Of a stretch of 64,000 bases of DNA, positions 1,020-57,923 are shown in pieces (positions within the stretch are counted from its first letter, which is position 1; the number at the start of each line of letters is the position of its first letter). Under the pieces are notes generated by a model, which saw only the letters and a list, made by a program, of their open reading frames with translations, ran no database searches and had not been told where the DNA came from. The DNA lies in assembly GCA_963842085.1 (NCBI GenBank), contig CAWJET010000001.1, positions 2,304,001 through 2,368,000 of the forward strand. Reading direction: 5' to 3'. Position numbers and translations under genes: made by a program. Origin of the DNA: an uncultured delta proteobacterium (GTDB lineage Bacteria > Desulfobacterota > Binatia > Binatales > Binataceae).

Positions 1020-1158
1020 TCGGGACTGCCCGCCGCTGATAGCCGGGTCCTGCGCAAGGGAAGGCCGCGAACCCCGCCAGGTCCGGAAGGAAGCAACGGT
1101 ACCGGCTGCCACCCTGTGCCGCAGGGGTGCCTGGCTATCATTCGACGGGCAGTCCCGG
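1020..1158 (+). ncRNA. ffs: Signal recognition particle RNA (4.5S)
   Basis: Hallmark CAGGTCCGGAAGGAAGCAAC domain IV at about 1078-1097 inside a long hairpin (gggactgcccg/cgggcagtccc, gatagccggg/cctggctatc); classic position upstream of dnaX. Confidence 0.92.
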
Positions 1159-1174
1159 GCGAAAAGATTTCGCG

Positions 1175-3043: not shown

Positions 3044-3082
3044 TACGTCGTCGCTGGAAGCCTGCGGCAAGGAGCAATTGGA

Positions 3083-3412
3083 GTGGCAGAAATAGACTTG
3101 TCAGCATTGATGCAGCAGGCGCAGGCGTTGCAATCCAAGATGCAGGAGATGCAGGACGCGGCGGCGGCCAAAACCGTCGAGGCGCAATCGGCCGGCGGGA
3201 TGGTGCGCGTGGTGGTCGACGGCACGCTGCGCGTGCGCAAGATCGAAATCGACGCCGCGCTGGTAGGCGCCAACGACAAGCCGATGCTCGAAGACCTGAT
3301 CCTGGTCGCCGTCAATGACGGGATGGCGCGCGCGCAGAAAATGCTCGCCGACGAGATGAGCAAGCTCGGCCCGCTGGGTGGCCTGAAGATTCCAGGATTC
3401 GGCGTCGAATGA
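3083..3412 (+). CDS. ybaB: YbaB/EbfC nucleoid-associated protein
   Basis: MQQAQALQ...AGGMVRVVVDG...LEDLILVAVND; dnaX-ybaB-recR synteny. Confidence 0.95.
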   Translation: MAEIDLSALMQQAQALQSKMQEMQDAAAAKTVEAQSAGGMVRVVVDGTLRVRKIEIDAALVGANDKPMLEDLILVAVNDGMARAQKMLADEMSKLGPLGGLKIPGFGVE

Positions 3413-3425
3413 CGGAGCGCGCTTG

Positions 3426-4049
3426 ATGGCCGAGAACCTGAAGCGCCAGGACGGACTGCCGCCCGCGATGACGCGGCTGGTCAAGGAATTGTCGCGGCTG
3501 CCGGGGATCGGCGAGAAGACGGCGTCGCGGCTCGCGTTCAACCTGCTCAATCGGCCGCGCGACCAGGTAATTGCGCTGGCGGAAGCCCTGCTCGAAATGA
3601 AAGAGCGCGTCGGCCTGTGCTCGGGATGCTTCGGCCTGTCGGACCATCCGCGCTGTCAGATATGCGACGACGAGGCGCGCGAGCGCGAAGTCATTTGCGT
3701 CGTCGAGGGGCCCGCCGATCTGATGGCAATCGAGCGGGCGCGCAGTTTCGGCGGCGTCTATCACGTGCTCAATGGCGCTCTCGCGCCGCTCGACGGCATC
3801 GGCCCCGACGACATCAAGATGAAGGAACTGATTGCGCGCGTGAGTCCGCCCGCGGTCGTGCGCGAGGTGATAATCGCGACCAATGCAACCGTCGAGGGCG
3901 AGGCGACCGCGCTCTACATCGCGCGCGCGTTGAAACCGCTCGGCGTGAAGACGACGCGGCTGGCGCGCGGACTGCCGGCCGGGGGCGACCTGGAATACAG
4001 CGACTCCGCCACGCTCACCAGCGCGCTCAGTGGCCGCCGCGAACTCTAG
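3426..4049 (+). CDS. recR: Recombination mediator RecR
   Basis: LPGIGEKTA HhH, C4 zinc finger, Toprim ATNATVEGEATA. Confidence 0.97.
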   Translation: MAENLKRQDGLPPAMTRLVKELSRLPGIGEKTASRLAFNLLNRPRDQVIALAEALLEMKERVGLCSGCFGLSDHPRCQICDDEAREREVICVVEGPADLMAIERARSFGGVYHVLNGALAPLDGIGPDDIKMKELIARVSPPAVVREVIIATNATVEGEATALYIARALKPLGVKTTRLARGLPAGGDLEYSDSATLTSALSGRREL

Positions 4050-4055
4050 CTCACA

Positions 4056-4409
4056 GTGAGAGCAGTCTTCGCGCGACGATTGCGGACGCGCGCGGTCGTC
4101 TCGATGCTCCCGATAGCAATGTTGGCTTGCGGTGCGCCGAAGCCGATGACCCCGGCAGAGCGCGGGCGAATCGTGTACATGACCAATTGCCTGGTTTGCC
4201 ATAACGCCGATCCCAACCTGCCCGGCAGCCAGGGGCCGCCAATCGCGGGCTCGTCGCGCGAGCTGGTCTACGATCGCGTGCTCTTTCTGAAGTATCCGCC
4301 CGGTTACAAACCCAAGCGCACCACGCACGCGATGCGCGCGCTGCCGCAGTTGGCCAATCGAATCGACGACCTGACAGCGTTCCTTGCAGGGGCGGCGAAG
4401 AAGAACTGA
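4056..4409 (+). CDS. Monoheme c-type cytochrome, probable lipoprotein
   Basis: CLVCH heme motif, distal Met (HAM), lipobox-like MLAC; start uncertain. Confidence 0.8.
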   Translation: MRAVFARRLRTRAVVSMLPIAMLACGAPKPMTPAERGRIVYMTNCLVCHNADPNLPGSQGPPIAGSSRELVYDRVLFLKYPPGYKPKRTTHAMRALPQLANRIDDLTAFLAGAAKKN

Positions 4410-4535
4410 AGCCGTTTGTCTAGAGCCATTCGTCAGGGGTAAAGTCGGATCACAGAGCCCAATCTCGGGACCTGCATTCACAATCAGCCGGGCGTACGAA
4501 TCTCGATTCCAGCCCGAAAGGACGGATTTTTCATC

Positions 4536-5117
4536 ATGGCATTCAAACTTCCCGAACTGCCGTACAGTATGGACGCGCTGAAACCCAATATCTCCGCCGA
4601 GACGCTTGAGTATCATCACGGCAAGCATCACAAGGCGTACGTCGACAAGCTGAACGAATTAGCCCCGGGCAGCAAATTCGCAAGCTCGTCGCTCGAAGAA
4701 ATCGTCAAGGGCGCCGAACCGGGGGGCCTCCTGAACAGCGCCGGGCAGCATTACAATCATTCCTTTTACTGGAAATCGTTGAGTCCCAAAGGCGGCGGCG
4801 GACCCAAGGGCCCGGCCGCGGACGCGATTAAGAAAGGCTTCGGCGATTTCGAGGCGTTCAAGAAAAAATTCAGCGAGATTGCGGTCGGCCACTTCGGCAG
4901 CGGCTGGGCGTGGCTGGTGCGAGCGAAAGACGGCTCGATCCAGGTCGTCGCGACGCATGACGCGGGATCGCCGATTCGCGAGGGCCAGACCCCGATCCTC
5001 ACCTGCGACGTGTGGGAGCACGCCTACTACATTGACTATCGCAACGCGCGCGCCAAGTACGTCGAGGCGTGGTGGAACCTGGTCAACTGGGATTTTGCCA
5101 ACGAAAATTTGAAATAG
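4536..5117 (+). CDS. sodB: Fe/Mn superoxide dismutase
   Basis: HHGKHH, NHSFYW, FGSGWAWL, DVWEHAYY. Confidence 0.95.
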   Translation: MAFKLPELPYSMDALKPNISAETLEYHHGKHHKAYVDKLNELAPGSKFASSSLEEIVKGAEPGGLLNSAGQHYNHSFYWKSLSPKGGGGPKGPAADAIKKGFGDFEAFKKKFSEIAVGHFGSGWAWLVRAKDGSIQVVATHDAGSPIREGQTPILTCDVWEHAYYIDYRNARAKYVEAWWNLVNWDFANENLK

Positions 5118-5147
5118 GCGGAACTCTGCTTTTAGTGCGCTTGGCGC

Positions 5148-6800
5148 CTACCTGGCTGCGATCGACGCGACGATCGCGCCGGCCGAGAGTGCGATCACTC
5201 TCCAGAACAGGTAGACGCCGGCGGACCCGGTCCGTTGTTCGACGGCTGCAGGCCGAGGAGCGGCCTCTTTCGGGCGCATCGATGCCGCAATCGGGGCAAG
5301 CACCTTGGCAAGGGCCTCGACTCGCTGCGCTTCCTCGGCTATCGACTCGGGCTGGCTGATGCCCTTGCCGCTCGGCGGATCGGCGTCCAACGCTGATGGC
5401 AGATCGCCGGTGACTACGGATGCGAGGGCGGAAGCGTAGCGTAAAGGATCTTGCGCGGCGGTGCGCGAACGCTGCAAATCGCCGGTGGATGCCAGGTTGG
5501 CCTCGTAAAGCTTTTGCTCGAGCGAAGCGGGCGAAGTCGAATCCGGGTCATTTTGCGTTGCGCCGATCTTTTCCTCGAGCAACGTTCTTCCTGCTGGCAG
5601 GGCCAGCAATGCCGACGCCATTATCCTGGCCATGACCTCGGGATCGGTGTTTGCGAGGTTGCGGACGAACGTGGCGCTCTCTGAGAATTTCGCGCGCAGC
5701 TCCTCGTCGGTTAAGCTGGAAGCTGCGGCGGCGCCGGGCTTCGCATGAATCAACGCCTGCAGGCGCTCGATGCGCTCGCCAAGCGGCGGATGGTTCGATA
5801 GCTTTCCCACAAGCATGTTACGCGGGTATTCGCTTACCGCGAATTTCCTGGCGTCCTCATCGCGCTCCTCCTGTGTTTTGCCGGGCTGCAAGCGGAGCCG
5901 GGTTATCTCATTGATGTATTGCTTGTAGCTCGTGGCTCCGCCCGCGCGCTCGAAGGGGTCCACGATGAAAAGCTGGGCCATACCTGGCGTGGCGCATCTC
6001 AGCGGCGACTCGGTCTTCGCGATCTGTTCAAGCGCGCGGATCAGCGCTGTCGGATTGCGCGTAAATTCAACGGCGGACGCGTCGGCCAGGTACTCGCGAT
6101 CGCGGGAGAGAATTGTTGAAATGATGCGCGAAACGATGCCGTCCGACGCCGAACGGGCCTTCCAGATGACGGGCATACCGGAGATGAAGCGCAACACGCC
6201 GAAGCCACGGAACATCGCCGTGACCATCGTCGTCAACCGGGTATCGCAATTGCGGATATGCGCCATCTCATGGCCGATCACGCCTTGTAGTTCCTCGCGA
6301 TCCATCTGGTCCAGCAGCCCCTGGGTGACACAAATCGCCGAGTGTTCGGGATCGCGCCCCACCGCGAACGCGTTAGGCGAGGGATCGTCGATGACCTCGA
6401 CGCGCGGCTCGGGTATTCGCGCCGCGAGCGCCATCTCGCGCACCACGTCGATGACCGTCTGATTCTTTGGCTGGTCGGAAGAGATCGGATGCGCATCCAA
6501 CGCGTCCAGCACCAGGTCTGCCCCGGCAAAATTCGCGCGCAACGCTTGCATTATGGCCAAGATCATTGCGATCGCCGTGAACCAGGGGATGCCGGAAAGC
6601 CGTCCGTCGCTGAAGCGCAAGTTGTGAGACCGGAAATCGAGGCCGAGGCCGAATGCAGCGAACGCCAGGATCACCTTCACCACTAGCGCAGCAGTACGGC
6701 GCCGATTGACCCGCTCGAGTTGCCAAAAGCTGCCGGATTCCCCCGCCATTGCCCGGTCCGCCTCAAATGAAAGCTTATGCCGCCGCAAGATCTGTGTCAT
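5148..6800 (-). CDS. M48 family (HtpX-like) zinc metalloprotease with long C-terminal extension
   Basis: PNAFAVG, GHEMAH, SRDREYLADA, HPPLGERI; N-terminal TM segments. Confidence 0.88.
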   Translation of the reverse strand: MTQILRRHKLSFEADRAMAGESGSFWQLERVNRRRTAALVVKVILAFAAFGLGLDFRSHNLRFSDGRLSGIPWFTAIAMILAIMQALRANFAGADLVLDALDAHPISSDQPKNQTVIDVVREMALAARIPEPRVEVIDDPSPNAFAVGRDPEHSAICVTQGLLDQMDREELQGVIGHEMAHIRNCDTRLTTMVTAMFRGFGVLRFISGMPVIWKARSASDGIVSRIISTILSRDREYLADASAVEFTRNPTALIRALEQIAKTESPLRCATPGMAQLFIVDPFERAGGATSYKQYINEITRLRLQPGKTQEERDEDARKFAVSEYPRNMLVGKLSNHPPLGERIERLQALIHAKPGAAAASSLTDEELRAKFSESATFVRNLANTDPEVMARIMASALLALPAGRTLLEEKIGATQNDPDSTSPASLEQKLYEANLASTGDLQRSRTAAQDPLRYASALASVVTGDLPSALDADPPSGKGISQPESIAEEAQRVEALAKVLAPIAASMRPKEAAPRPAAVEQRTGSAGVYLFWRVIALSAGAIVASIAAR

Positions 6801-6884
6801 CCACTACCCGCAGGAGAGAGTCGTCAGGCATTTGCGATACCCGGCGTCCGCAGTAGAATCACATCCGGGCTCCAGGATGTCTCA

Positions 6885-7607
6885 ATGCAAATCCTCGAAA
6901 ATCGAGTTGCGATAGTCACCGGCGGGACCGGCGCGCTCGGCTGCGCGGTGGTCGAGAATTTCCTGATCGCGGGCGCTAAGGTCGCGGTTCCTTACGTCGT
7001 CGATGCGGAAGTGCCATTGCTGCAAAAGCAACTCGGCAACCGTTTCCCGGCGTCCGAAATCTTTCTCAAAAAAGCGGACGTCAGCGACGAGGCGCAAGTC
7101 GCGAAGTTTGTGGCGGACGTCGCGTCGAAGTGGAGCAAGGTCGATATCCTGGTGAATCTCGTCGGTGGATTCTGGGGCGGCAAGCCGATCGCGGAAACCA
7201 CGCTCGCCGAGTGGCAGGCGATGTTCGATCTCAACGTGAAGCCGACGTTCCTCTGCTGCCGCGCGGTCGTGCCGGTAATGCAGCGCAACAAGTGGGGACG
7301 CATCGTGTCGGTCGCATCGCGCAGCGGTCTGCAGGGCGCGGGCGACTACGCCGCGTACGCGGTGGCCAAGGGCGCAATCGCAACTTTCACCGCGTCGCTC
7401 GCACAGGAAGTGCTCGACGACGGCGTGATGGTCAACGCGATCGCGCCGAGCACCATCGACACGGAAGCGAACCGCGCCGCGATGCCCAAGGCGAAGCACG
7501 AAAATTGGGTAAAGCCTGCGGATATAGCGAGGACGATCGCTTACCTGTGCTCGGACGATTGCCGCGTCACGTCAGCCGCAGTCGTGCCGGTGTACGGACG
7601 CGCCTGA
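6885..7607 (+). CDS. Short-chain dehydrogenase/reductase
   Basis: TGGTGALG, YAVAK, VNAIAP. Confidence 0.92.
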   Translation: MQILENRVAIVTGGTGALGCAVVENFLIAGAKVAVPYVVDAEVPLLQKQLGNRFPASEIFLKKADVSDEAQVAKFVADVASKWSKVDILVNLVGGFWGGKPIAETTLAEWQAMFDLNVKPTFLCCRAVVPVMQRNKWGRIVSVASRSGLQGAGDYAAYAVAKGAIATFTASLAQEVLDDGVMVNAIAPSTIDTEANRAAMPKAKHENWVKPADIARTIAYLCSDDCRVTSAAVVPVYGRA

Positions 7608-7621
7608 GAGCGAGCGCGAAC

Positions 7622-8437
7622 TCAACTCTGAGCGGCGGCGGCGTGGGAATCGACGGAACGGAGCCGCGATCTATGTGGCATCGCGAGCCTATCCGCGACG
7701 ATTCGGTACACGTCGACGTTCAAGCCCATCCCGACGTGACTGCCCATGACCTCGACGTTTTCCACCGTCGGGGTGCCGCTCAAATCCACGCAGCTCTCCC
7801 AGTGGACGACGCCGTCGGTGCGCGAGTAGATGTGCGTGGCCGGAACGTCGGCGGGCGATTCGTCGCTCAAGATCACTCCGCACTGGCACTCCTCGCTGAG
7901 GCATCCTTGCGCCCTGCCACGAAGTGCGGCGACCGATTTGGCCACAACCTCGACGGCGAGGCTGGCGTGGCGCCGCGGCTGCCGGATTGGCGAGCCGAGT
8001 GAAATTACGCGCTCGACCATTTCGGGCTGCTCGCGTGCAAGCTCACGCGCGTAAACCCCGCCGAGGCTTTGGCCAACCACTACTATCGGCTGCTCGAATT
8101 TCTCATGAGCGAGCGCGAGCCGCGCGTTCAACTTGCGCATCGTCTCGCGCGGACAGTCCGAGTTCGACAGAATTCCGGCATAGACCGCGCGATGGCCGAG
8201 CCATCGGCAGAAGTTCGCCAGCGGCGCGAGCGTCAAGTCGCCGGCCATGAAACCCGGGATGAGCATGACGACTTTGGCGTTGTGGGACCGCACATGCGGC
8301 CAGGGATGTACGATTGCTCCGATCCAGTAGATGCTGGCCTCAAGCGGAACACGGAACTCGCCCAACGTGTCCAGCATCGAAGGACGCTTTGGCTGGCTCG
8401 CTTTTCGTGAACTATTTTGCGCGCTACTTGGAGTCAT
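7622..8437 (-). CDS. Alpha/beta hydrolase (esterase/lipase)
   Basis: PGFM oxyanion motif, GQSLGG nucleophile elbow, DGVV, SHVG; AAGGAG RBS before ATG 8437. Confidence 0.88.
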   Translation of the reverse strand: MTPSSAQNSSRKASQPKRPSMLDTLGEFRVPLEASIYWIGAIVHPWPHVRSHNAKVVMLIPGFMAGDLTLAPLANFCRWLGHRAVYAGILSNSDCPRETMRKLNARLALAHEKFEQPIVVVGQSLGGVYARELAREQPEMVERVISLGSPIRQPRRHASLAVEVVAKSVAALRGRAQGCLSEECQCGVILSDESPADVPATHIYSRTDGVVHWESCVDLSGTPTVENVEVMGSHVGMGLNVDVYRIVADRLAMPHRSRLRSVDSHAAAAQS

Positions 8438-8532
8438 AGATCTCCTTTTTGGGCAGTTCGCGCGGGCATCGTCAGGCAAATGCAGGGCGAAACCGCATCC
8501 TCATCAACCCTTCATCCTCTGAATCCTACATA

Positions 8533-8560: not shown

Positions 8561-9001
8561 TTCTAATGCAGATTTTGATGATTTCGCGGGCATCGGGACT
8601 TTACAGCACCAAATGAATTGCACATTGATGCGGCAACGATATGCGTAAAGACGAAAAGAGTTATCGAAGCGCGCGAAGGCTCTGTTCTAATTTCTGGCAG
8701 CGTCAATGGGCGTGTTCGCGGCGCGCGGGAGAATGTGCCGAGATATTAATCAAGGCCGGTCGAGTCCGTGCGCAGGAAATTAGTTCCAACGAAGAGCGGA
8801 TATTCCCAGGCTGGCCCAAAGATCGGACACGTTGCGCGTTTAGGTTTATACGGGTTCAGGTCCAGAGTCGCCGCAGAGGGTCGCGAATCGAAACTTCGCC
8901 GAATACGTGTTAATTTTACATTTGCAAAGATCTAAAAGTTCAAATCTGATTTAGAATTCAAGTCCTGACCTGCGAAATGTCGCGACGCTGAATTCCGGGT
9001 A

Positions 9002-9418
9002 ATGAAAAGATCACGGTTAGGCGAAGTGATAAGGGCGAGCCGCGAGGCCATAGGGTTATCGCAACGCGAATTGGGTCGTAGGTTGGGGGTAACAGCTTCG
9101 CACGTTGCTTATATCGAGTCTGGCAGACGGCGTCCTTCGCATTTCCTCCTGTTTCGGTTGGCGCGTTGTCTACAGCTGAACCGGCAGGAACTATTCCTGG
9201 TCGCTTACCCCGAGTTGGCGCCGCCCCTTACACTGCCCCTATCGCCAACCGAAGATCGCGAGGCCGCGTGGCGCCGGTTCCTTGCTGTCTCGGGGCGATA
9301 TTCGGTAACTCCAGGGGAACTGGCAGTGCTGCGGAAAATATCTCGGCTGGGCAAGATTTCTCCCAATTCGTATTTCGGGATTCTGAATTCGATCAGACAG
9401 TCCTTGGAAACAGACTGA
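9002..9418 (+). CDS. XRE/Cro-C1 HTH transcriptional regulator
   Basis: LGEVIRASREAIGLSQRELGRRLGVTASHVAYIESGRRRPS. Confidence 0.88.
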   Translation: MKRSRLGEVIRASREAIGLSQRELGRRLGVTASHVAYIESGRRRPSHFLLFRLARCLQLNRQELFLVAYPELAPPLTLPLSPTEDREAAWRRFLAVSGRYSVTPGELAVLRKISRLGKISPNSYFGILNSIRQSLETD

Positions 9419-9434
9419 CCTCGACGCGACACCG

Positions 9435-9740
9435 TTAGCCGGCCTTCCTCGCGTCAGCGACGAGGCTCGAACGCCCGGCCGCGCTAATTTCCCGCCTCGG
9501 GAGGCGCGCGCGGGCGACCGCAAGTCGCAGGTCTTTGAGTCCCCGTACCATCCGGTACATCGCGCGAGCCTCGCGCGTGAGGACCTTTGATACTTGCTCG
9601 TCGAACACGTTCTCGGCGGCGATCATCGCCATTTCGCTTGCGCCATCTTCGATCGCGTTCCCCACAGCCTTCAGTTGCCGGACGAGGGCGCGGCGGTCCG
9701 CTTCAAAGCAGGTTTGTTCGCTGTATAACGCTGAGCTCAT
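9435..9740 (-). CDS. Hypothetical helical protein, paralog of 10903-11166
   Basis: Shares CFExDRxxL...MIAAENVFD...ARA with the downstream ORF. Confidence 0.7.
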   Translation of the reverse strand: MSSALYSEQTCFEADRRALVRQLKAVGNAIEDGASEMAMIAAENVFDEQVSKVLTREARAMYRMVRGLKDLRLAVARARLPRREISAAGRSSLVADARKAG

Positions 9741-9864
9741 TCGCTCTGTAGCAAGCATTCCCACCCCTACGCAGTTAACTGGAAGTTAGCTAAAATCGCT
9801 GCTCAGGGTCTGACAATTGGGGACATTTTTTGACATTTGGAGACGCTAGTCGTAAGAATTGAAG

Positions 9865-10884
9865 ATGCCGAAGCTAGTCCGTAGCGCCAGCTTGACCGAC
9901 TACCTCGAAGTCGCTCGTTCCGTAGGCCTCGATCCATCCAGTATGCTTGGCAGCGTCGGCTTGTCCACAGGTTGTTTGCAAAATCCGGACTTCAAAATTC
10001 CGGAGGATGCAGTTCGCCAGCTTTTGGAAGCGTCGGCGACGGCAGCGGGGATCGAGGACTTCGGCCTGCGGCTGGCAGAGAGGCGTACGCTTTCAAATCT
10101 CGGCGCGCTGGGGTTACTCGTCCGCGATCAACCGACCGTTCGCCAGGGGCTCGAAGCCTGGAATCAATATAGAAAGTTGCACACTGACTCGGTGTCGCTG
10201 CGAATTGAAGAGCGCGACGGTATCGCGACCGTGAGCCTTTCCCGCTTGGTCGAAACGCCCCTGCCTCAGCGTCAAGCTGTCGAGATGGCGGTTGGTGTTC
10301 TCTATCGCACACTGCGCGTGTTTCTCGGTGACGGGTGGAGGCCGCGTGTCTGCTTTGCGCACAGCGCGCCACGCAATCGCGATACCCACCGACGAGTGTT
10401 CGGCAGCGAGGCCGAGTTCAACCGCGATTTCAACGGAATAATCTGCCGCTCGAGCGATCTCGACGCGCGTATTCCGGCGGCCGATCCGGTAATGGCGCGG
10501 TACGCGCAACATTATGTTGATTCGATCGCACACACGGATGGGACCTTCAGCGAAAAAGTGCGGGAGCTCGTCAGCATGATGCTCTCCTCGGGAGATTGCC
10601 GGATGGAGCGGATCGCGCAGTACTTGGGCGTCGATCGCAAGACGGTGCATCGGCGCCTGGCGGACGAAAGAACGAGTTTCTCCGCTATCGTTGACGGGGT
10701 CCGAACCGAGCTGGTGAACCGTTACCTCGAGAACCGCGAACGGCCCTTATGTGTCGTCGCCGAGATGGTCGGATTCTCTGACTTGAGCGCGTTTTCGCGC
10801 TGGTTCAAGAGACGCTTCGGGCGCAGTGTTTCAGCGTGGCGGGCGATCAATCAGCCGCGCGGCAAGTCCCAATCCGTGGATTAG
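9865..10884 (+). CDS. AraC family regulator (OruR-type N-terminal domain)
   Basis: DFGLRLAE..., C-terminal double HTH VAEMVGFSDLSAFSRWFKRRFG. Confidence 0.92.
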   Translation: MPKLVRSASLTDYLEVARSVGLDPSSMLGSVGLSTGCLQNPDFKIPEDAVRQLLEASATAAGIEDFGLRLAERRTLSNLGALGLLVRDQPTVRQGLEAWNQYRKLHTDSVSLRIEERDGIATVSLSRLVETPLPQRQAVEMAVGVLYRTLRVFLGDGWRPRVCFAHSAPRNRDTHRRVFGSEAEFNRDFNGIICRSSDLDARIPAADPVMARYAQHYVDSIAHTDGTFSEKVRELVSMMLSSGDCRMERIAQYLGVDRKTVHRRLADERTSFSAIVDGVRTELVNRYLENRERPLCVVAEMVGFSDLSAFSRWFKRRFGRSVSAWRAINQPRGKSQSVD

Positions 10885-10902
10885 CTTGCTTGTACCGTCG
10901 CG

Positions 10903-11166
10903 CTATTTTTTCACGCCGGGGAATTTTGCGCGGGTCAGCACGTTGCCCAGGACATCCAGCCTCTGGGCCATGCGGTTCAGGGCGCGGGCCTTGCGTTTGA
11001 GTTTTGCTGAGAGAGGCTTGTCGAACACGTTCTCGGCTGCGATCATCTCAATTTCGGTCAAGGCGTTTCGGATAGTGAGCTTCAGAGCTTTCACTTGACC
11101 GATGAGGACGCTGCGGTCGATTTCAAAGCAGTCTCGTTCGCTATCTATTTTGGATCCCGGTCTCAT
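10903..11166 (-). CDS. Hypothetical helical protein, paralog of 9435-9740
   Basis: CFEIDRSVL...MIAAENVFD...KARALNRM. Confidence 0.7.
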   Translation of the reverse strand: MRPGSKIDSERDCFEIDRSVLIGQVKALKLTIRNALTEIEMIAAENVFDKPLSAKLKRKARALNRMAQRLDVLGNVLTRAKFPGVKK

Positions 11167-11508
11167 TCACGACCCGACTCCTGGCGACATTCGAATCGCC
11201 GAACGGACGTGCCAATTGACCAAGGCTCCTTGAGCCGGCACAGCAAACCTGCTGCTTGCGGGCCGGCTCTTCACGTTAAAAGACTAGCAGAACCATGGCA
11301 GGTTCGCGGTGATCGCGGAAGCAGGGAAAATCGGCACAAAGATGAGAATGAGAATCGTATCTCCACAAAATGTGCATACGGTTCATGGGGAACGTGTCGC
11401 GTTGCCATTCGCGAATCGGGACGGTTGCCGATCGGACCCTGGATGTTCTCAGCTCCGGCCGGTTTGCTAAGGTAGCCAACTCAAATCCCGGTCTTTTGCG
11501 AGGTACAA

Positions 11509-12495
11509 ATGGAATTCGGAGTTCAACTTGGCAATTTGGAACCCGCCCAGTATAAAGCACACGCGCAAGCGGCTGAGGCGCTCGGCTACGACCTGATCGT
11601 CTTCCCCGACCATCTCGTGAACGAAGGTCCGGAGCGGCAATTCGATCCGAAGTCGAACGCCTACGACCATATCGTGATGGCCGCCGCCGTAATGGAGGCG
11701 ACGAAGAAGATCCGCGTCGGCCATCTCGTGCTATGCAACCTGTTTCGTCATCCCGCGATCACCGCGCAGAGCCTGATGACGCTGGACCGGCTGAGCGGCG
11801 GCCGGCTGGTCGCAGGTCTCGGCACAGGATGGACCGAGACGGAATTCAAGATGAGCGGGATTCCGTTTCCGCCGATCGCCGAGCGGCTGCGGATGCTTGA
11901 CGAAGCGATGACCTGCATCCTGTCGCTGTGGCAGAACGAGCGCACGACTTTCGACGGCGAGTTCTACCATTTCAAGGATGCGATCCTGTGGCCGAAGCCC
12001 GTTCAGCAGCCCCATCCGCCGATAATCGTTGGTGGCGGCGGTAAGGGTCTGCTGCGGATCGCGGCGAAATACGCGGACTACGTCAATATCATTCCGGACG
12101 CGGGCAAGCGCGGACACATCTCGATGGAGGTCGTGAAGCGCACGAACGACGCATCGTTTCGCGAGAAGGCGAGCTTCGTTCGCAACGAAGCGAAGCGCCT
12201 AGGCCGCCAGCCTGACGCGGTTCGGATCAGCAACTTCCTTTTCTCGACGATCATTTCGGACTCCCGCGAAGCGACCCGCAAGACCGCCGAGATGATGGCG
12301 CCGATGTTCGGCCAGACCGCGGACGACCTGCTGGCGTCGCCGATGATTCTGATTGGGACGCCGGAGGAATGCATCGCCGAGCTGATGCGGCGCGCGAAGG
12401 ACTGGGGCACGTCGCAGATGATCTTTACCGGCGAAGTCGGGCAGAACGAAAAGCTGATGCGCGACCTGCGCGAGAAAGTCCTCGCGCACGTGTGA
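11509..12495 (+). CDS. LLM-class flavin/F420-dependent oxidoreductase
   Basis: FPDHL, RHPAITA, LSGGRLVAGLGTGW, PKPVQQPHPPIIVGG. Confidence 0.9.
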   Translation: MEFGVQLGNLEPAQYKAHAQAAEALGYDLIVFPDHLVNEGPERQFDPKSNAYDHIVMAAAVMEATKKIRVGHLVLCNLFRHPAITAQSLMTLDRLSGGRLVAGLGTGWTETEFKMSGIPFPPIAERLRMLDEAMTCILSLWQNERTTFDGEFYHFKDAILWPKPVQQPHPPIIVGGGGKGLLRIAAKYADYVNIIPDAGKRGHISMEVVKRTNDASFREKASFVRNEAKRLGRQPDAVRISNFLFSTIISDSREATRKTAEMMAPMFGQTADDLLASPMILIGTPEECIAELMRRAKDWGTSQMIFTGEVGQNEKLMRDLREKVLAHV

Positions 12496-12555
12496 GCGAT
12501 CGCGCACTGAGGTGACGCCTGGCGCGGAGTAGGGAAGGGTAAATCACTCTATTGA

Positions 12556-12622
12556 ATGTGAAACCCACCGTGGGTTTCACGCTTCCCTGGGCACGGGTGA
12601 CCCCTGCACCCAATGTTAAGAA
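12556..12622 (+). repeat. Intergenic two-hairpin repeat, copy A
   Basis: atGTGAAACCCaccgtGGGTTTCACgcttccctgggcacgggtgacccctgcacccaatgttaagaa; matches copies at 37633, 39892, 45521 and 45629. Confidence 0.85.
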
Positions 12623-13068
12623 AGCTGCGCGCCTAGCTGAAGCACCAGCACGACCGTCATCGCCGCGAGGCAGTAGCGATGATCTTTGTAGATCGCGCGC
12701 GCGAGACGGCTTTGCTCCTCGGGTGAGTCTGACGCTTTACCCAGCCGCGCTGCGTTCGGAATGGTGCGCACGCGAGCGAGTCCGATCGCGCTGGCGGCGG
12801 CAGCGAGCGATATCCATTCGATCCACCAATGATACGCGCCGAGCACAATCTCAATGACTATGACGAGCAGCGTCAGCAGCATCACGAGCGCGATCAGCCG
12901 ATTCATCGGCCACGCTTCCCGCGTGACGCGCCGGTAATATCCCGAGATCGACGCCAGCGCATTTGCGGGAACTTCGCCGTCGTGGCCGCGCACCTGCACG
13001 TCGAACATCAGATCGAACCACAGTACGCAGATCAGGAATGCGGCCCCGGCCGCGGCGAATGCGTGCAT
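12616..13068 (-). CDS. Hypothetical integral membrane protein (about 4 TM)
   Basis: MHAFAAAGAAFLICVLWFDLMFDVQV...; ATG lies 2 nt after the stop codon of the displaced Rrf2 3' end. Confidence 0.75.
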   Translation of the reverse strand: MHAFAAAGAAFLICVLWFDLMFDVQVRGHDGEVPANALASISGYYRRVTREAWPMNRLIALVMLLTLLVIVIEIVLGAYHWWIEWISLAAAASAIGLARVRTIPNAARLGKASDSPEEQSRLARAIYKDHRYCLAAMTVVLVLQLGAQLS

Positions 13069-13070
13069 GT

Positions 13071-13153
13071 CTAGATGCTGTAGTTGATCGCCTGCCTGCG
13101 CTTCTCCGACAACGCCTGCAACGTGACGCCGCGCAGGATGCCGTTGACCGAAT
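13071..13153 (-). repeat. Displaced copy of the Rrf2 gene 3' end (att-like direct repeat)
   Basis: 83 bp, 78/83 identical to 14638-14720; encodes the same ...SVNGILRGVTLQALSEKRRQAINYSI*. Confidence 0.92.
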
Positions 13154-13190
13154 GAACGACACGACGGTCGACCTGAGGCGCTAGGTGTTC

Positions 13191-13358
13191 CTATTTGAGC
13201 CAATAGCCGACGACGACGCCGATGAGAGCGCTAGCCCATTTCACGTAGTCGTCGGGGTACTGTTTAGATATCATCACGTAGGAGCAGACACTGAGAATCG
13301 TCGCGCTCACACCCAGTTGGGCGAACAACACGATCGTTTTTCGCCAGTCCGCCCCCAT
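13191..13358 (-). CDS. 55-aa two-TM membrane protein (not in the ORF track)
   Basis: MGADWRKTIVLFAQLGVSATILSVCSYVMISKQYPDDYVKWASALIGVVVGYWLK*; starts 13 nt after the upstream stop. Confidence 0.75.
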   Translation of the reverse strand: MGADWRKTIVLFAQLGVSATILSVCSYVMISKQYPDDYVKWASALIGVVVGYWLK

Positions 13359-13371
13359 TGCCTGCTACAGG

Positions 13372-13620
13372 CTAGCGGCTGATTAACTCTTTGACGGTTC
13401 TGACAGCTTCGCGGATGTGAGTACCAAAGGGGGCTTCTTCATCGTCTTCGACAGCAGTGGTAGCGGTCTGCTGCGCCGCCGTCTTCTCATTTCCGGCAAC
13501 AGTGAATGTTGCAGATGAATCGTCACCAAGAGGAAAACCTGATGGCTCGTAGTTTTTGATGGTCCACTGATTTAGCCACCCTGCCATGCATTGCGTTGTC
13601 TGGGTAAATATCGTGCTCAT
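13372..13620 (-). CDS. 82-aa hypothetical acidic, Thr-rich protein
   Basis: GGAGAGGG RBS-like sequence before the ATG; co-oriented between the islet genes. Confidence 0.65.
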   Translation of the reverse strand: MSTIFTQTTQCMAGWLNQWTIKNYEPSGFPLGDDSSATFTVAGNEKTAAQQTATTAVEDDEEAPFGTHIREAVRTVKELISR

Positions 13621-13655
13621 TAGTTCGCCCTCTCCGCTCTCTCGCGACAGGAAAT

Positions 13656-14462
13656 TCAGTTTTCGCCGCTCAGATCTTTTCGCTGAATTATGCGCAACCC
13701 CTCGCGCCGGGTTATTACGGCTACATCAATCGCGCCACCCACGCCGCGAATCCCGATGCTAAGCTTTTGCGCCGTTACTGTGGCACGGATCAAAAAAACC
13801 GCCAAGTCTATGGAATCTTGCAGCGGAAGGACCGCAAACGGTATAGCCAACGAAAGTAGTCGCAAGTTCTGAACCAGCGTAGCCACCTGCGAGTCCTGTA
13901 AATTAAGAATTCGCTGAACGATCTGGGGAAGTTTTACGTCGTAACCCTGAAGCAGTCGAATCGCCGCTTCTGATTGGCCTCCGATGGTAATTCCAAAGTC
14001 ATTCGGCGACTGCTCTGCAGGGGTCGGTTGGCCAGGGATCGTAAGAACGTAGACCGAGCCGTACGCTGCATCAGGATCATACCCTCCGATACAAAATGTC
14101 ATCCCAGGCCCCTTATAGTCTGGGGGCATTCTCTCCCTCCAACGCGCCAAGTAGAAGTCGCTAAGTCGTTGAGCGAAGTCGCGCACATTTTCCTTGTCTT
14201 GTGGCAACTGGGTTTCAAACTCAGGAAGGAAACTATGAGCCGTTCGGAGGTCGGTCGGCTTGGTTCCCATTACCGCATCGCCATAAGTGACTGCCGCAAC
14301 TCTACGGGGATTGTCTCGGTCACCAAAAGTCAAAAGCTTCGTTGCGTTGTCGAAGTTCACGTTTATGGGCATTTGACCTGGAGCCGCCGCTGTGAGGGTC
14401 ACTCGACTGTCCGCGGCCAAGACCACTCCCTCAGGCCCCTTGATGACAATCCCTAAAGACAA
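13656..14462 (-). CDS. Proteasome-beta-like Ntn hydrolase with Ser1 nucleophile candidate
   Basis: (M)SLGIVIKGPEGVVLAADSRVT...NATKL...GGYD...GGQ...VGGAIDVAVIT matches the 20S beta/HslV-type pattern (nucleophile at residue 1, D17, downstream K); TTG start. Confidence 0.8.
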   Translation of the reverse strand: MSLGIVIKGPEGVVLAADSRVTLTAAAPGQMPINVNFDNATKLLTFGDRDNPRRVAAVTYGDAVMGTKPTDLRTAHSFLPEFETQLPQDKENVRDFAQRLSDFYLARWRERMPPDYKGPGMTFCIGGYDPDAAYGSVYVLTIPGQPTPAEQSPNDFGITIGGQSEAAIRLLQGYDVKLPQIVQRILNLQDSQVATLVQNLRLLSLAIPFAVLPLQDSIDLAVFLIRATVTAQKLSIGIRGVGGAIDVAVITRREGLRIIQRKDLSGEN

Positions 14463-14637
14463 CTTGCCCCCCGTTTCTGCAGAATTGCGCGTCCGCCGAG
14501 GTTGTTCACTACGCTCCGTCGCCAGAGCGATTTTTTACCATAGTATTTGGCCGCGCTTGGCTCAAACGGAAAACCCCTCGTCTACTGCGATTTCCTGCAA
14601 GAATACCATCCCATAAAAAATGAAACGACCTCTCCGG

Positions 14638-15072
14638 CTAAATGCTGTAGTTGATCGCTTGCCTGCGCTTCTCCGACAACGCCTGCAACGTCACTCCGCG
14701 CAGGATGCCGTTGACGGAATCGCGCACTTCGCGCCATACGTCGCGCATCGCGCACGGTTGCTCGCGCGGGCAGGTCGACGAGCTTTCCTCCAGGCATTCC
14801 ACGGGCGTGTAGTCGCCCTCGATTATCTCCACCACGTCGGCCATCGTGATTCGCGCCGGCGGCCGGGCCAGCATGTACCCGCCGCTCGGCCCCTTCTGAC
14901 TGGCGACCAAACCTCCACGCTTGAGCTCGATCAGCAGCCGGCGCAGGTAGTTCTCGGGGATATCCTGGGTCTCCGCTATTTCCTCGACGCGCACCGGCAA
15001 GTTGGCAGGATAACGATCCGCCAACAGCAGCAGGGCCTTCAGTGAGTAGTCAACGCCGACGCCAAACTTCAT
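14638..15072 (-). CDS. Rrf2 family regulator (CymR/IscR-like)
   Basis: IAETQDIPENYLRRLL...SQKGPSGGYML; three Cys (CLEESSSTCPREQPC); divergent from the sulfite reductase. Confidence 0.92.
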   Translation of the reverse strand: MKFGVGVDYSLKALLLLADRYPANLPVRVEEIAETQDIPENYLRRLLIELKRGGLVASQKGPSGGYMLARPPARITMADVVEIIEGDYTPVECLEESSSTCPREQPCAMRDVWREVRDSVNGILRGVTLQALSEKRRQAINYSI

Positions 15073-15137
15073 CTTTTTTCAGAACTTTCCCCTCCTGAAT
15101 CTACCATTATCTGCCAATAGAAGGAATAGGCGACTCG

Positions 15138-15180
15138 CTTAGTCATCTACTTAATTGACTAAGTAGGTAACCTAAGTTAC
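15138..15180. promoter_or_regulatory. Overlapping palindromes, probable Rrf2 operator(s) in the divergent promoter
   Basis: CTTAGTCA-N10-TGACTAAG, CTACTTA-N6-TAAGTAG and GTAAC-N4-GTTAC. Confidence 0.6.
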
Positions 15181-15207
15181 TTTTTATCCTCGCAGGAGAA
15201 TCGATCA

Positions 15208-16833
15208 GTGCCCAAGAGGGAACCGCAATCGTGGGAAATGGTGCTGAAGCGCAACTCGGTCGAGCGCCTCAAGCACGAGCTGTTTCCCACCGAGCTGGCG
15301 GGTCAATGGGACCGGCTGGCAGAGACCTCATACGAGAAACTCCCCGAGGAAGATATCGTGCGGCTCCAGTGGTTCGGCATGTACCACGACAAGCCGAAGA
15401 TCGGCACGTTCATGATGCGGATCAAAATTCCCAGCGGCATCCTGAGCGCCGAGGGGCTCCGCGCAATCGGTGAAATCTCCGAGAACTACGGGCGCGACCA
15501 GGGCGAGCTGACCACGCGCCAGAATATCCAGCTTCACTACATCACGCTCGACAAGTTCCCCGAGATTCTCGACAAACTCAAAGGCGTCGGGCTGACGACG
15601 ATGGGCGGATGCGGCGACGTCGTGCGCAACATCACGGGATGCCCGGTGGCGGGCGTGGACCCCGACGAAGTTTTCGACGTGACGCCGCTGATTGCCGAGG
15701 CCGCGGGATTTTTCTACGGCAATCGCGAGTACTCGGACCTGCCGCGCAAGCACAAAATCTCGATCGCCGCATGCCCGCATCAGTGCAACGCGCCCGAGAT
15801 CAACTGCGTCTCGCTGATCGCGATGCTCAAGGACGGACGCGAGGGCTTTGCGGTGCGCGTCGGCGGCGGACAGTCGTCGACGCCGCGGCTGTCGCGGCAC
15901 CTGGGCGTGTTCATCACGCGCGAACAGGCGATGCCGGTGATGCGCACGATCATCGACGTGTGGCAGGGCACCACCGAGTACCGCATGTCGCGGGTCAAGG
16001 CGAGGCTCAAGTTCATGATCGACGATTACGGGCCGGAGGAATTTCGCAAGCTGGTCGAAGCGAAGCTCGGCTTCGCGCTCGAAAATCTCGACGAGATGCC
16101 GATTCCCCAGACCGAGAGCGATCACATGGGCATCCACGAGCAGCGGCAGCCCGGGCTCAACTATGTCGGCTTCCCGGTTTACCTCGGGCTGATGAGCGGG
16201 CGGCAAATGCGCGAGATTGCGGCGCTGACGGCGTCATTCGGCGGGGACGTCCGACTCACGCGGCGGCAGAATTTCATCCTCACCGGCATCCCGACCGCGC
16301 AGCTCGACGACGTGATCGCGCAGGTCGGGGCGATCGGGTTTCCGCTCGATGCGAACGGCCTTTACGCGTCGTCGATCGGATGCATCGGCGATCCGCATTG
16401 CAACTATGCCGTGACCCCGACCAAGACCAAGCTCGCGACGATTATCGAGCGGCTGGTGAATCAGTTTGGCGAGCAGGTTGGCGGTCTCAAGCTGAATCTC
16501 GACGGATGCCCGCATGCGTGCGCGCAGCACTGGACCGGCGACGTCGGGTTGCAGGGCACGACCAGGCGCGGAGCCGCGGGCGAGCCGCTCGAGGCCTTCG
16601 ACATTATCCTGCGCGGCGGGTTGGGCAAGGATGCAGCGATCGGCAAGCCGATCATCCGCCGCGTGCCGTCCGCGCTGGTTGAGGATTCCGTGGCGCGGCT
16701 GTTCGGGACTTACCTCGAACGGCGCGATGCCAACGAGACGTTCTCGCACTTTTGCGTGCGCACGCCTGACGCCGACCTGATTTCGATCGCAAGTAGAAAC
16801 GCAACCGGCGCTGACGCCCACGCCGCCGCCTGA
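15208..16833 (+). CDS. sir: Ferredoxin-dependent sulfite/nitrite reductase (siroheme)
   Basis: TTRQNIQ, LPRKHKISI, CIGDPHC and GCPHAC ligands; adjacent to cysH. Confidence 0.9.
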   Translation: MPKREPQSWEMVLKRNSVERLKHELFPTELAGQWDRLAETSYEKLPEEDIVRLQWFGMYHDKPKIGTFMMRIKIPSGILSAEGLRAIGEISENYGRDQGELTTRQNIQLHYITLDKFPEILDKLKGVGLTTMGGCGDVVRNITGCPVAGVDPDEVFDVTPLIAEAAGFFYGNREYSDLPRKHKISIAACPHQCNAPEINCVSLIAMLKDGREGFAVRVGGGQSSTPRLSRHLGVFITREQAMPVMRTIIDVWQGTTEYRMSRVKARLKFMIDDYGPEEFRKLVEAKLGFALENLDEMPIPQTESDHMGIHEQRQPGLNYVGFPVYLGLMSGRQMREIAALTASFGGDVRLTRRQNFILTGIPTAQLDDVIAQVGAIGFPLDANGLYASSIGCIGDPHCNYAVTPTKTKLATIIERLVNQFGEQVGGLKLNLDGCPHACAQHWTGDVGLQGTTRRGAAGEPLEAFDIILRGGLGKDAAIGKPIIRRVPSALVEDSVARLFGTYLERRDANETFSHFCVRTPDADLISIASRNATGADAHAAA

Positions 16834-16862: not shown

Positions 16863-17702
16863 ATGGCTGCAGGACCGCAATTTGAAGAAGAGCTCGAAAC
16901 GCCCGATCTGAGTCTCAGCATGGACGAACTCGAGGCGGGCGAGGCCGCCGTCGAGCTCGACGACAAGGAGCCGCAGGAGGTCCTGGCCTGGGCGATAGAC
17001 AGGTTCGGCAGGGAGCTGGCGATTTGTTGCAGCTTCCAGGCCGACGGCTGCGCGCTGATCGACATGGCGCACAAGATCGATCCCCGCATCCGCGTCTTCA
17101 CGATCGACACCGGCCGCATGCCGCAGGAGACCTACGACGTAATCGACAAGTATCGCGAGCGCTACGGAATCCACGTTGAGGTCTTCATGGCCGATACCGC
17201 GATCGTGCAGCAGATGGTCACCAGGCACGGCAACAATCTTTTCTACAACGACGTCAACCTGCGCCTGCTCTGCTGCCAGGTGCGCAAGGTGCTGCCGCTG
17301 CGCCGAGCGCTGATGAACTACAGCGCGTGGGTGACGGGACTGCGCCGCGACCAATGGGCGACGCGCTCGAACATCCGCAAGATTGAAATCGATCACGACC
17401 ACGGCGGGATCGTAAAGCTCGCGCCGCTGGCCGACTGGACCGAAGGCGAGGTCTGGGATTACATCCGCGCCAACGACGTGCCCTACAACGCGCTCTATGA
17501 CAAGGGCTACAAGTCGATCGGCTGCGCGCCATGCACGCGCGCGGTGGGCGAGGGCCAGGATCCTCGCGCCGGCAGATGGTGGTGGGAGACGGGCGCGCCC
17601 AAGGAATGCGGGATGCACTGCGCGATCGAGACGGGCGGCTTCGAGCACGAGCTGGCATCGCTGCTTGGTCATAACAACGGCGACGGCCACACTAAGTCCT
17701 AG
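16863..17702 (+). CDS. cysH: APS/PAPS reductase ([4Fe-4S] APS-reductase type)
   Basis: IDTG, CCQVRK, TGLRRDQ, SIGCAPCT, GRWWWE, KECGMH. Confidence 0.93.
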   Translation: MAAGPQFEEELETPDLSLSMDELEAGEAAVELDDKEPQEVLAWAIDRFGRELAICCSFQADGCALIDMAHKIDPRIRVFTIDTGRMPQETYDVIDKYRERYGIHVEVFMADTAIVQQMVTRHGNNLFYNDVNLRLLCCQVRKVLPLRRALMNYSAWVTGLRRDQWATRSNIRKIEIDHDHGGIVKLAPLADWTEGEVWDYIRANDVPYNALYDKGYKSIGCAPCTRAVGEGQDPRAGRWWWETGAPKECGMHCAIETGGFEHELASLLGHNNGDGHTKS

Positions 17703-37632: not shown

Positions 37633-37724
37633 ATGTGAAACCCGCGGTGGGTTTCACGCTTCCTTCGGCAGGAGCCAGCCCCTGCACCCGGTGTTAAGAA
37701 ATAGACGCGGGCTTCACCCTCTGG
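37633..37724 (+). repeat. Intergenic two-hairpin repeat, copy B
   Basis: GTGAAACCCgcggtGGGTTTCACgcttcc..GCAGG..CCTGCACCC..ttaagaa..gcgggcttc. Confidence 0.85.
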
Positions 37725-39891: not shown

Positions 39892-40008
39892 CAGAGACGA
39901 AGTCCCGCATCTTGTTTTTTCACCGGGTGCAGAGCCTGTCCTGAGCGAAGCCGAAGGAGGCCATCCCTGCCCGCGGAAGCGTGAAACCCACGGCGCGTTT
40001 CACATACA
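39892..40008 (-). repeat. Intergenic two-hairpin repeat, copy C, with a nested CCTGTCCTGAGCGAAGCCGAAGG element
   Basis: Reverse-complement match to copies A and B, with about 25 nt inserted in hairpin 2. Confidence 0.82.
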
Positions 40009-45520: not shown

Positions 45521-45700
45521 GGGCAGGGGTGACCCCTGCACCCAGTATTAAGAAGAGGTGCGGGACTTCGTCTCTGGTAGGAAGTGCTTTTGTGTCATTC
45601 CAGAGCGAAGCGAAGAATCCCGGCTCCTTTTCTTAATTCCAAGGTGCAGGGTTTAATCCTGCCCAAGGAAGTGAAACCCACGGCGGGTTTCACATTAAAT
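45521..45700. repeat. Composite element: repeat copy D (+) and copy E (-) flanking a TGTCATTCCAGAGCGAAGCGAAGAATC REP-like unit
   Basis: 45521-45577 gggcaggggtgacccctgcaccc..ttaagaa..gcgggacttcgtctctg; 45629-45700 reverse copy containing GTGAAACCC..GGGTTTCAC. Confidence 0.82.
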
Positions 45701-53591: not shown

Positions 53592-53599
53592 CGTCAGCC

Positions 53600-54433: not shown

Positions 54434-54456
54434 CGTGATCTTCTTACCCCGCTCCT

Positions 54457-55485: not shown

Positions 55486-55502
55486 TCCTGGTCCCGCTTT
55501 CC

Positions 55503-57835: not shown

Positions 57836-57849
57836 CGTTGGCTATAATT

Positions 57850-57872
57850 TAGCCGATAGGCGAACTAGACTA
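57850..57872. promoter_or_regulatory. Putative autoregulatory Rrf2 box
   Basis: TAGCCGATA-N5-ACTAGACTA. Confidence 0.6.
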
Positions 57873-57923
57873 AAGCCGTAAGCAGAGTCAGTCAAGAGCC
57901 GCGAAGCGCCGCGAAGACCGGGA

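Follow-up and report, generated by a model that had tools for sequence, protein, structure and literature searches.

A duplicated Rrf2 gene end beside foreign DNA in Candidatus Binatus suggests a probable 3'-end displacement by homologous recombination

Introduction

How can foreign DNA be added directly behind the last codon of a conserved gene, with the gene left undamaged and no integrating enzyme nearby? This question is raised by a locus of an uncultured Binataceae bacterium, contained in a stretch of 64 kb (contig CAWJET010000001.1, positions 2,304,001 to 2,368,000) which is referred to as the window and from whose first letter all coordinates below are counted. Here an intact gene for an Rrf2-family regulator of 144 amino acids (aa; minus strand, 14638..15072) is followed by a low-GC islet with three open reading frames (ORFs), beyond which lies a second copy of the last 83 nucleotides (nt) of the same gene. 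An earlier note on this DNA had taken the gene end for the bacterial attachment site (attB) of a site-specific integrative element. The comparison with related genomes presented here gives a modest preference to a different answer, "3'-end displacement" by host homologous recombination at a long-standing variable spot of Binataceae chromosomes, rather than to a dedicated integrating element.

A duplicated gene end and a foreign islet

The two copies (13071-13153 and 14638-14720; 83 nt each, 94% identity, spacing 1567 nt by repeat search) form the longest direct repeat of the window, in which the sole other repeat family of at least 45 nt is a palindrome resembling repetitive extragenic palindromic (REP) elements; a repeat of this kind is far beyond chance. 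Read on the minus strand, either copy gives the same peptide, SVNGILRGVTLQALSEKRRQAINYSI*, encoded by 26 codons and a TAG stop. The five mismatches between the displaced and the attached copy (TCG/TCC, GGC/GGA, GTC/GTG, CAG/CAA, and ATC/ATT) are all at third positions and all synonymous, so that no residue differs. The attached copy (14638..14720, minus strand) forms the end of the intact gene, and its last codon is ATT, whereas the displaced copy and all 34 closest relatives (see below) have ATC. The displaced copy (13071..13153, minus strand) is contiguous with a membrane protein gene in the same way as in relatives with an empty site: its TAG is followed by AC and then by the ATG of a 150-aa ORF.

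Between the copies lies the inserted islet (13154..14637, minus strand; 1,484 nt), which has a GC content of 0.535 compared with 0.617 for the window; likewise, GC at third codon positions is 0.56 in its 268-aa ORF (named p268) and 0.83 in the Rrf2 gene. Repeat search and translation thus reproduced the positions and the five synonymous mismatches that the earlier note had listed, and the composition agrees with its view that foreign DNA was inserted at the Rrf2 3' end while a second copy of that end kept the gene intact.

Machinery that could have moved the islet was sought with Pfam, and no integrase, recombinase, or transposase domain was detected in the 73 ORFs of the window that were scanned (the islet ORFs together with 10, 28, and 25 of the 70 called), as expected from the earlier statement that no integrase remains. 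Several familiar kinds of element were rejected. The repeat search found no terminal inverted repeats at the islet ends, and with no transposase either, a transposon or miniature inverted-repeat transposable element was discarded. A tRNA-linked island was dismissed on finding no tRNA or tmRNA gene in the window, and a diversity-generating retroelement because the scanned window ORFs contained no reverse transcriptase domain and the mismatches (G/C, C/A, C/G, G/A, and C/T) are not adenine-specific. The region 12300-15300 had no Rfam match at E<=0.1, and a promoter and terminator scan of 12400-15300 gave nothing over shuffled background.

The pattern of the five differences carries information on when they arose. 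Five random substitutions over the 81 coding nt were all synonymous in 0.07% of 200,000 trials, and in 0.85% when selection was modelled on only one copy, the other being neutral. Since an all-synonymous set is unlikely (P ~0.0007 to 0.0085) if the differences arose after the insertion, they look like allelic differences between two functional genes. Copies resembling the alleles of two close strains could also be produced by an assembly artefact, in which two co-occurring strains were joined through the shared Rrf2 end, and the source is apparently metagenome-assembled, as are all relatives found. However, a join through shared sequence cannot make the boundary between the far end of the islet and codon 117 of Rrf2, which implies that this junction is present in at least one strain. 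In addition, the exact Rrf2 and membrane proteins and those of the two smaller islet ORFs (p82 and p55) each occur on 4 contigs, the longest of 3.24 Mb, and for p268 a cluster of 5 proteins sharing 99-100% identity is recorded, each on a contig of a different length; these assemblies may be independent of each other. The same kind of structure was also seen in two other metagenome-assembled genomes (MAGs), L030 and L032, described below. An artefact is therefore regarded as extremely improbable.

Empty sites and a variable interval in relatives

Relatives were collected by scanning one genome per species with the Rrf2 protein, which yielded 80 loci (L001 to L080), all from Candidatus Binatus or Binataceae MAGs, with flanks of up to 6 kb. 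The window organism is itself a Candidatus Binatus, with a best Rrf2 match of 97% protein identity among the 80 loci, none of which is conspecific; its flanking genes are 80-94% identical at the DNA level to those of the 34 closest loci. The islet is carried by none of the 80 loci, where neither its nucleotide sequence nor its three ORFs (tblastn, E<=1e-5) had a match.

The arrangement downstream of Rrf2 differs considerably among the 34 close relatives. The membrane gene begins 1-2 nt after the Rrf2 stop in seven of them (L003, L005, L006, L008, L010, L011, and L029), after a spacer of 15-19 nt in 11, and behind other genes in two (L007 and L019), and hence lies between Rrf2 and a luciferase-like monooxygenase gene in 20. 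Another 13 have no membrane gene, Rrf2 facing the monooxygenase gene or other genes, and in the remaining one the contig ends. The junction in L006 reads TAG-AC-ATG, identical to that between the displaced copy and the membrane gene in the window. Together with the other six tight junctions, this supports the earlier proposal that the displaced copy is the original gene end. The empty site which the note had suggested seeking in related genomes thus exists, though only in other species, and the membrane gene (12616..13068, minus strand; type 1, no known family), formerly the immediate downstream partner of Rrf2, is now separated from it by 1.57 kb, also in line with the note.

Several sequence states are common to both window copies and absent from all 34 relatives, and the two copies are nearer each other than to any relative. 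Such shared states suggest a very close relative's chromosome, rather than an old phage-type attachment site (attP) borne by an element, as the source of the incoming copy.

The monooxygenase gene (11509..12495, plus strand; Pfam Bac_luciferase, 2.5e-50) is convergent to Rrf2 and forms the conserved right flank of a variable interval, whose stop-to-stop length is between 12 nt and 4.1 kb in the 32 close relatives with both ends placed. In distant Binataceae, Rrf2 is followed by hydrolase, SDR, SodA, RecR, YbaB, and DnaX genes, and homologues of four such genes (DnaX, SodA, SDR, and hydrolase) are present at 1127-8479 of the window. The entire stretch from ~8.5 to 14.6 kb is thus variable at the family level. 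Other contents observed between Rrf2 and the monooxygenase gene include catalase-like and cytochrome b561 genes (L007, 6432-7948), a ~640-aa membrane ORF with no Pfam match (L002, 3202-5112), and, in L004-L006, genes of the glyoxalase-like, SDR, SnoaL-like, and TPR kinds; the order of the 640-aa gene and the membrane gene is not fixed, differing between L008 and L019.

Displaced gene ends in other genomes

Each locus was searched for a second copy of its own Rrf2 end by blastn and local alignment. Apart from the window (alignment score 146), just two of the 80 related loci, L030 (222) and L032 (158), gave strong matches, whereas all others scored at most 48. Both L030 and L032 show the order intact Rrf2, 19-nt spacer, type-2 membrane gene (73-75% identical to that of the window), and displaced Rrf2 fragment. 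The fragment of L030 is 121 nt long with 5 mismatches and is followed by a 636-aa gene, which stands directly after Rrf2 in L002; that of L032 is 89 nt long, identical over its last 74 nt, and followed by the monooxygenase end, as found directly after Rrf2 in L026 and L028. By eye, the L030 fragment has lost its stop and carries amino-acid changes, and two changes are also present in the attached copy.

In the window, the 17 nt directly after the attached stop (14621..14637, minus strand) resemble the spacer native to locus type D (L030, L032, and L001), where it separates Rrf2 from the membrane gene; 13 of 17 positions, counted by hand, are shared with the L032 spacer, which precedes a type-2 membrane gene. 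This remnant contains a ribosome-binding-like GGAGAGG that is unused, as no gene starts there and the next ORF begins 158 nt further. Such a remnant is relevant to the possibility that the 83 nt were duplicated in place when the islet entered, through a long target duplication or repair synthesis, and acquired the five differences later. Duplication in place would fit the mutual closeness of the window copies and the 74 identical nt of the L032 copies; however, five exclusively synonymous differences would be rare with one copy neutral (P ~0.0085), and the attached copy is followed by the spacer of another locus type, unlike what follows the displaced copy. Besides, no bacterial insertion mechanism giving target duplications of 70-120 nt is known to us, and this origin appears very improbable.

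Two further loci may carry decayed versions of the same kind of structure. In L019, a 656-aa ORF (its L002 relative has no Pfam match) lies between the intact Rrf2 gene and a decayed fragment of ~42 nt, which is followed by a spacer and the membrane gene; the fragment is 32/42 identical to the L009 gene end, and fragment plus spacer match L004 at 51/63 aligned positions but the intact copy of L019 itself at only 39/63. In L007, a possible 16-nt remnant is separated from Rrf2 by the catalase-like and cytochrome b561 genes. Among 35 loci, the window included, there would thus be three clear, one probable (L019), and one possible (L007) cases of a displaced end, as judged from alignment. Apart from these, no decayed Rrf2 fragment above background was found downstream of the membrane gene in the window or the other loci. 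The inserts of the relatives have a GC content of 0.60-0.62, compared with 0.56 for the interval of the window. Attached and displaced copies share 94-100% identity within a genome, compared with 74-89% for the same 83 nt between species; L019 departs from this pattern in that its fragment is nearer the allele of another species.

An old tandem pair of Rrf2 genes, one coupled to the membrane gene, might also have been deleted differently in different lineages, with gene conversion keeping the remaining 3' fragments similar to the intact copy. Variable fragment lengths and high identity of copies within a genome would be expected from such a history, and the tight stop-to-start junction of Rrf2 and the membrane gene in seven relatives suggests an old operon. 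Nevertheless, a tandem pair of full Rrf2 genes at this position occurs in none of the 80 loci (L080 has a 34%-identical Rrf2 gene on the other strand), the window insert is foreign in composition, and the closer match of the L019 fragment to the L009/L004 allele (51/63 positions) than to its own intact copy (39/63) argues against conversion. A differentially deleted tandem is accordingly given a low probability.

The displaced fragments differ in their 5' limits, with lengths of 121, 89, 83, ~42, and ~16 nt, and all contain the last ~16 nt of Rrf2. These lengths bear directly on the site-specific element proposed by the earlier note, which would be a reduced element resembling cis-mobilizable elements (CIMEs), with the Rrf2 3' end as attB and the replacement end carried in attP, moved in trans by an integrase encoded elsewhere. 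[quoted passage not shown] However, the fragment lengths vary, the inserts are different native genes rather than one element family, and the islet itself is present in none of the 80 related loci. The replacement end is followed by native spacer, and lineage-specific states are shared with the resident copy, both unexpected for a stable element-borne attP. The integrase which the earlier note had suggested seeking beside this Rrf2 end did not appear either: in addition to the scanned window ORFs, no integrase, recombinase, or transposase was detected in 65 of the 82 representatives of clusters formed by the L035-L080 ORFs lying up to 6 kb downstream of Rrf2 (the other 17 are mostly 150-180 aa). 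The attB interpretation was therefore not upheld, and a site-specific element is considered rather unlikely.

In a broader form of the same idea, the last codons of Rrf2 would constitute a dedicated attachment site in Binatota, where a chromosomal enzyme acting in trans would place small recombinase-less cassettes, among them the proteasome-like islet and the membrane gene, each ahead of the previous one. Such a site would be comparable to an integron platform or to elements that exploit Xer, except for its position inside the coding end of a sulfur regulator. This too seems improbable.

Probable displacement by homologous recombination

The explanation preferred here, by a modest balance of the evidence, is that the structure arose by displacement of the Rrf2 3' end through host homologous recombination. 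It accounts for displaced ends that recur with variable length, and for inserts that differ and consist mostly of native genes, i.e., the type-2 membrane gene in L030 and L032, the 656-aa ORF in L019, and the catalase-like and cytochrome b561 genes in L007. Each insert also begins with native downstream sequence of another locus type. The greater identity of copies within a genome than between species and the synonymous nature of all five window differences point in the same direction, as do the lack of integrase, recombinase, transposase domain, or tRNA gene in the searches and the wide variation of the gap between Rrf2 and the monooxygenase gene in both length and contents. Finally, the same anatomy was described for rhs loci by Jackson et al. 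2009 (PMC2935791), in the sections drawn on here.

In this process, a donor segment from a very closely related Binatus strain would have comprised the last part of Rrf2, the first 17 nt of its native downstream spacer, and the foreign islet of 1.5 kb, and would have recombined with the resident Rrf2 gene through the shared sequence. Recombination might have involved either a small circle that integrated by a single crossover, the route suggested for rhs loci, or a linear piece with homology at one end and an illegitimate joint at codon 117. The resident end of Rrf2 and the coupled membrane gene would thereby have been pushed 1.57 kb downstream, leaving a silent fragment and an unchanged regulator protein. 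By means of the 83-nt repeats, the islet could perhaps also loop out and re-enter the chromosomes of conspecifics in the same RecA-dependent way. The recombination route, the direction of transfer, and a close relative as donor are inferred, whereas the duplication, the foreign composition, the empty sites of relatives, the recurrence with fragments of differing length, and the lack of an integrase in the scanned ORFs were observed.

Several points weigh against recombination of this kind. As the flanking genes of even the 34 closest relatives reach only 80-94% identity, the donor, the recipient, and the direction have been deduced rather than observed. A single crossover over 83 nt would be inefficient, and more so over 16-42 nt, and the short remnants require later decay. 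The presence of the last ~16 nt of Rrf2 in all five fragments leaves room for a fixed site-specific core, and the first entry of foreign DNA into a Binatus chromosome is not covered by the model. The similarity of the spacer remnant depends on 13 of 17 positions. Moreover, L030 and L032 may reflect two events or a single one followed by exchange of the right flank, in which case recurrence would be less frequent, and L019 and L007 are weak cases. In the part of L032 that separates the membrane gene from the fragment, an 11-nt exact match seen by eye may be what is left of the 636-aa gene, but it had no significant blastn support and was not used.

Comparison with known systems

Displacement of C-terminal ends is best described for rhs genes, for which Jackson et al. 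2009 (PMC2935791) reported, in the passages considered, core fragments whose length varies, attached and dissociated cores that are nearly the same within one genome, and incoming DNA of different GC content, and proposed homologous recombination through a small circular intermediate, limited to close relatives. As in this description of rhs, the window has an intact gene and, downstream of it, a detached piece of that gene's 3' part, with variable fragment length, near-identity within the genome, a GC shift, and no integrase. In contrast, the incoming end of rhs encodes a new toxin tip and changes the protein, whereas the replacement observed here is synonymous, both window copies encoding the same 26 residues with no diversification of the protein, and the payload consists only of the DNA after the stop. 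The gene concerned is also a small regulator rather than a polymorphic toxin, and there is one displaced fragment instead of a string.

A second parallel is offered by the type VI secretion system (T6SS) of Vibrio cholerae, whose effector-immunity modules are sequentially displaced, a process ascribed to homology-facilitated illegitimate recombination in the portion of Kirchberger et al. 2017 (PMC5361080) relied on here. In both systems, a conserved upstream gene serves as homology anchor, newcomers adjoin the anchor, older genes are shifted downstream, and, as far as that portion goes, no known integrase takes part. Unlike the T6SS modules, in which retention of immunity genes is thought to be the driver, the displaced fragment of the window has no evident selective logic.

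Integrative elements at gene 3' ends, including integrase-less cis-mobilizable elements and tandem accretion, form a third group (compare the IME review, PMC5704250, and the ssrA islands of Dehalococcoides, PMC3146451). These elements share with the present locus the 3'-end direct repeats that flank foreign DNA, the restoration of the target gene, and the reuse of the site; however, they have fixed att cores acted on by a dedicated recombinase, whereas in Binatus fragment length is variable, the inserts bear no relation to one another, and the ORFs scanned yielded no recombinase gene.

The islet genes and a proteasome-fold protein

The p268 gene (13656..14462, minus strand) starts with TTG and encodes 268 aa with the N-terminus MSLGIV. 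Among 3129 candidates, 1881 homologues were identified at E<=1e-3; they are 55-66% identical, and the MSLGIV N-terminus is conserved. Beyond the 99-100% identical cluster members mentioned above, the next relative is 65-66% identical (65% by BLASTP and 66% by alignment), and Acidobacteria, Chloroflexi, Anaerolineae, and Candidatus Methanoperedens appear among the source names of homologues. In all 62 sequences aligned, Ser2 and Lys42 are invariant, and position 18 is Asp or Glu in 14 of 14. Based on the alignment and a passage of Fuchs, Alva and Lupas 2021 (PMC8665760), Ser2, position 18, and Lys42 may correspond to Thr1, Asp17, and Lys33.

The AlphaFold model of p268 (predicted local distance difference test, pLDDT, 75; residues 206-242 poorly modelled) was compared with PDB by Foldseek, and every match among those listed is a 20S proteasome subunit, with probability 1.0 and template modelling (TM) scores by target of 0.43-0.61. 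In profile-based searches, there was no Pfam match at E<=0.01 (Proteasome model included) and none in NCBIfam or PADLOC (E<=1), while a PDB profile search reached proteasome beta at E ~0.2 only. In the Atlas, p268 falls among unnamed clusters, one of which partly carries PF00227. On the basis of the structural model, p268 is predicted to be a proteasome-fold protein, resembling N-terminal nucleophile (Ntn) hydrolases, of an uncharacterised family, with Ser2 as candidate nucleophile.

Fuchs et al. surveyed uncharacterised proteasome homologues, which occur in bacteria, archaea, and some phages, and p268 resembles these families in its proteasome fold, in having Ser instead of Thr1 right after the start Met, and in the conserved Lys. 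It differs in that it was not placed in any of the named families, which are represented here by their descriptions only, and in giving no match to the Pfam Proteasome model at E<=0.01.

In database versions of p268 (254 and 238 aa), the N-terminus is truncated, the Atlas record beginning only at residue 31, because the true start is TTG; the cut made by automatic annotation in this lineage removes the invariant Ser2, the would-be catalytic nucleophile. A defence-system role was rejected, as PADLOC gave no match at E<=1, and so was a plasmid or phage origin, with no plasmid match and one weak phage match of 25% identity. PHROG 5990, whose function is not known, matched residues 177-263 only (1.3e-8).

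The other two islet ORFs are less informative. The doubtful p82 gene (13372..13620, minus strand) is an orphan, its sole match in a set of 5.8 billion proteins being itself, and no family match was found in Pfam, PADLOC, NCBIfam, or PHROG. The small hydrophobic p55 (13191..13358, minus strand) matched NCBIfam gtrA_1 at E=0.0019 over profile positions 68-117 of 126, under the cut-off, and may be the C-terminal remnant of a GtrA-like gene, a lead only. Its stop is in frame with the displaced Rrf2 fragment, 13 codons upstream of it (13154-13193), which may be coincidence (a 1/3 chance).

Neighbouring genes and repeats

The membrane protein has 3198 homologues, mostly annotated as "hypothetical", and every organism-naming source among the 120 matches listed is Candidatus Binatus. 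The window protein has 150 aa, compared with 168-169 aa in most type-1 relatives and 152 aa in L010, and its different short C-terminus adjoins a REP-like element, as does that of L010 (12616-12700 in the window and 6865-7060 in L010); this element may have replaced the end of the gene. It lies between the membrane and monooxygenase genes (12551..12604, no strand assigned) and was defined by alignment, with four copies of its palindrome in the window (12558-12580, 37635-37657, 39981-40003, and 45671-45693) and none in 100 shuffles. The copies have conserved flanks of ~70-80 nt and are mostly intergenic by ORF calls, although the one at 39981 overlaps the called start of an MnmE ORF; that at 12558 had no Rfam match. 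The palindrome was also found in L018 (4292-4314, inverted relative to the flanking genes) and L028 (2639-2661); as judged by eye, L010 and L007 carry it downstream of their membrane genes.

The Rrf2 gene product matches Pfam Rrf2 (4.4e-39) and NCBIfam rrf2_super (1.7e-37), whereas its score with the CymR model is 87 bits, under the cut-off of 195. As the gene is divergent from sulfite reductase (15208-16833) and 3'-phosphoadenosine-5'-phosphosulfate (PAPS) reductase (16863-17702) genes, it can be regarded as CymR-like by context, and the label of sulfur regulator is reasonable; the Joint Genome Institute (JGI) name of the cluster members is "Rrf2 family cysteine metabolism transcriptional repressor". 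The pairing of Rrf2 with a monooxygenase recurs within the window, since another Rrf2 gene (152 aa) has another luciferase-like monooxygenase gene as its partner at 57377-58766, adjoining sulfate ATP-binding cassette (ABC) transporter genes and a porin gene (51643-56972).

A second stretch of lower GC content (~0.54-0.61) was noticed at 8641-11500 of the window. It contains an XRE-type helix-turn-helix (HTH) gene at 9002-9418 and two paralogous small ORFs (9435-9764 and 10903-11166; 45% identical, no family) that flank an AraC-type regulator gene (9859-10884).

Implications

In an uncultured phylum, the locus presents foreign genes that were added beside a conserved gene with no mobile-element machinery and no damage to the gene. 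Its signature is a synonymous duplicate of the gene end, and a genome-wide search for such duplicates could find other integrase-free additions; at the same time, it cautions that not every duplication of a gene end is an att site. The cargo is of separate interest as a member of a large predicted proteasome-fold family, with 1881 homologues found, an invariant N-terminal Ser, and no match in Pfam, NCBIfam, or PADLOC.

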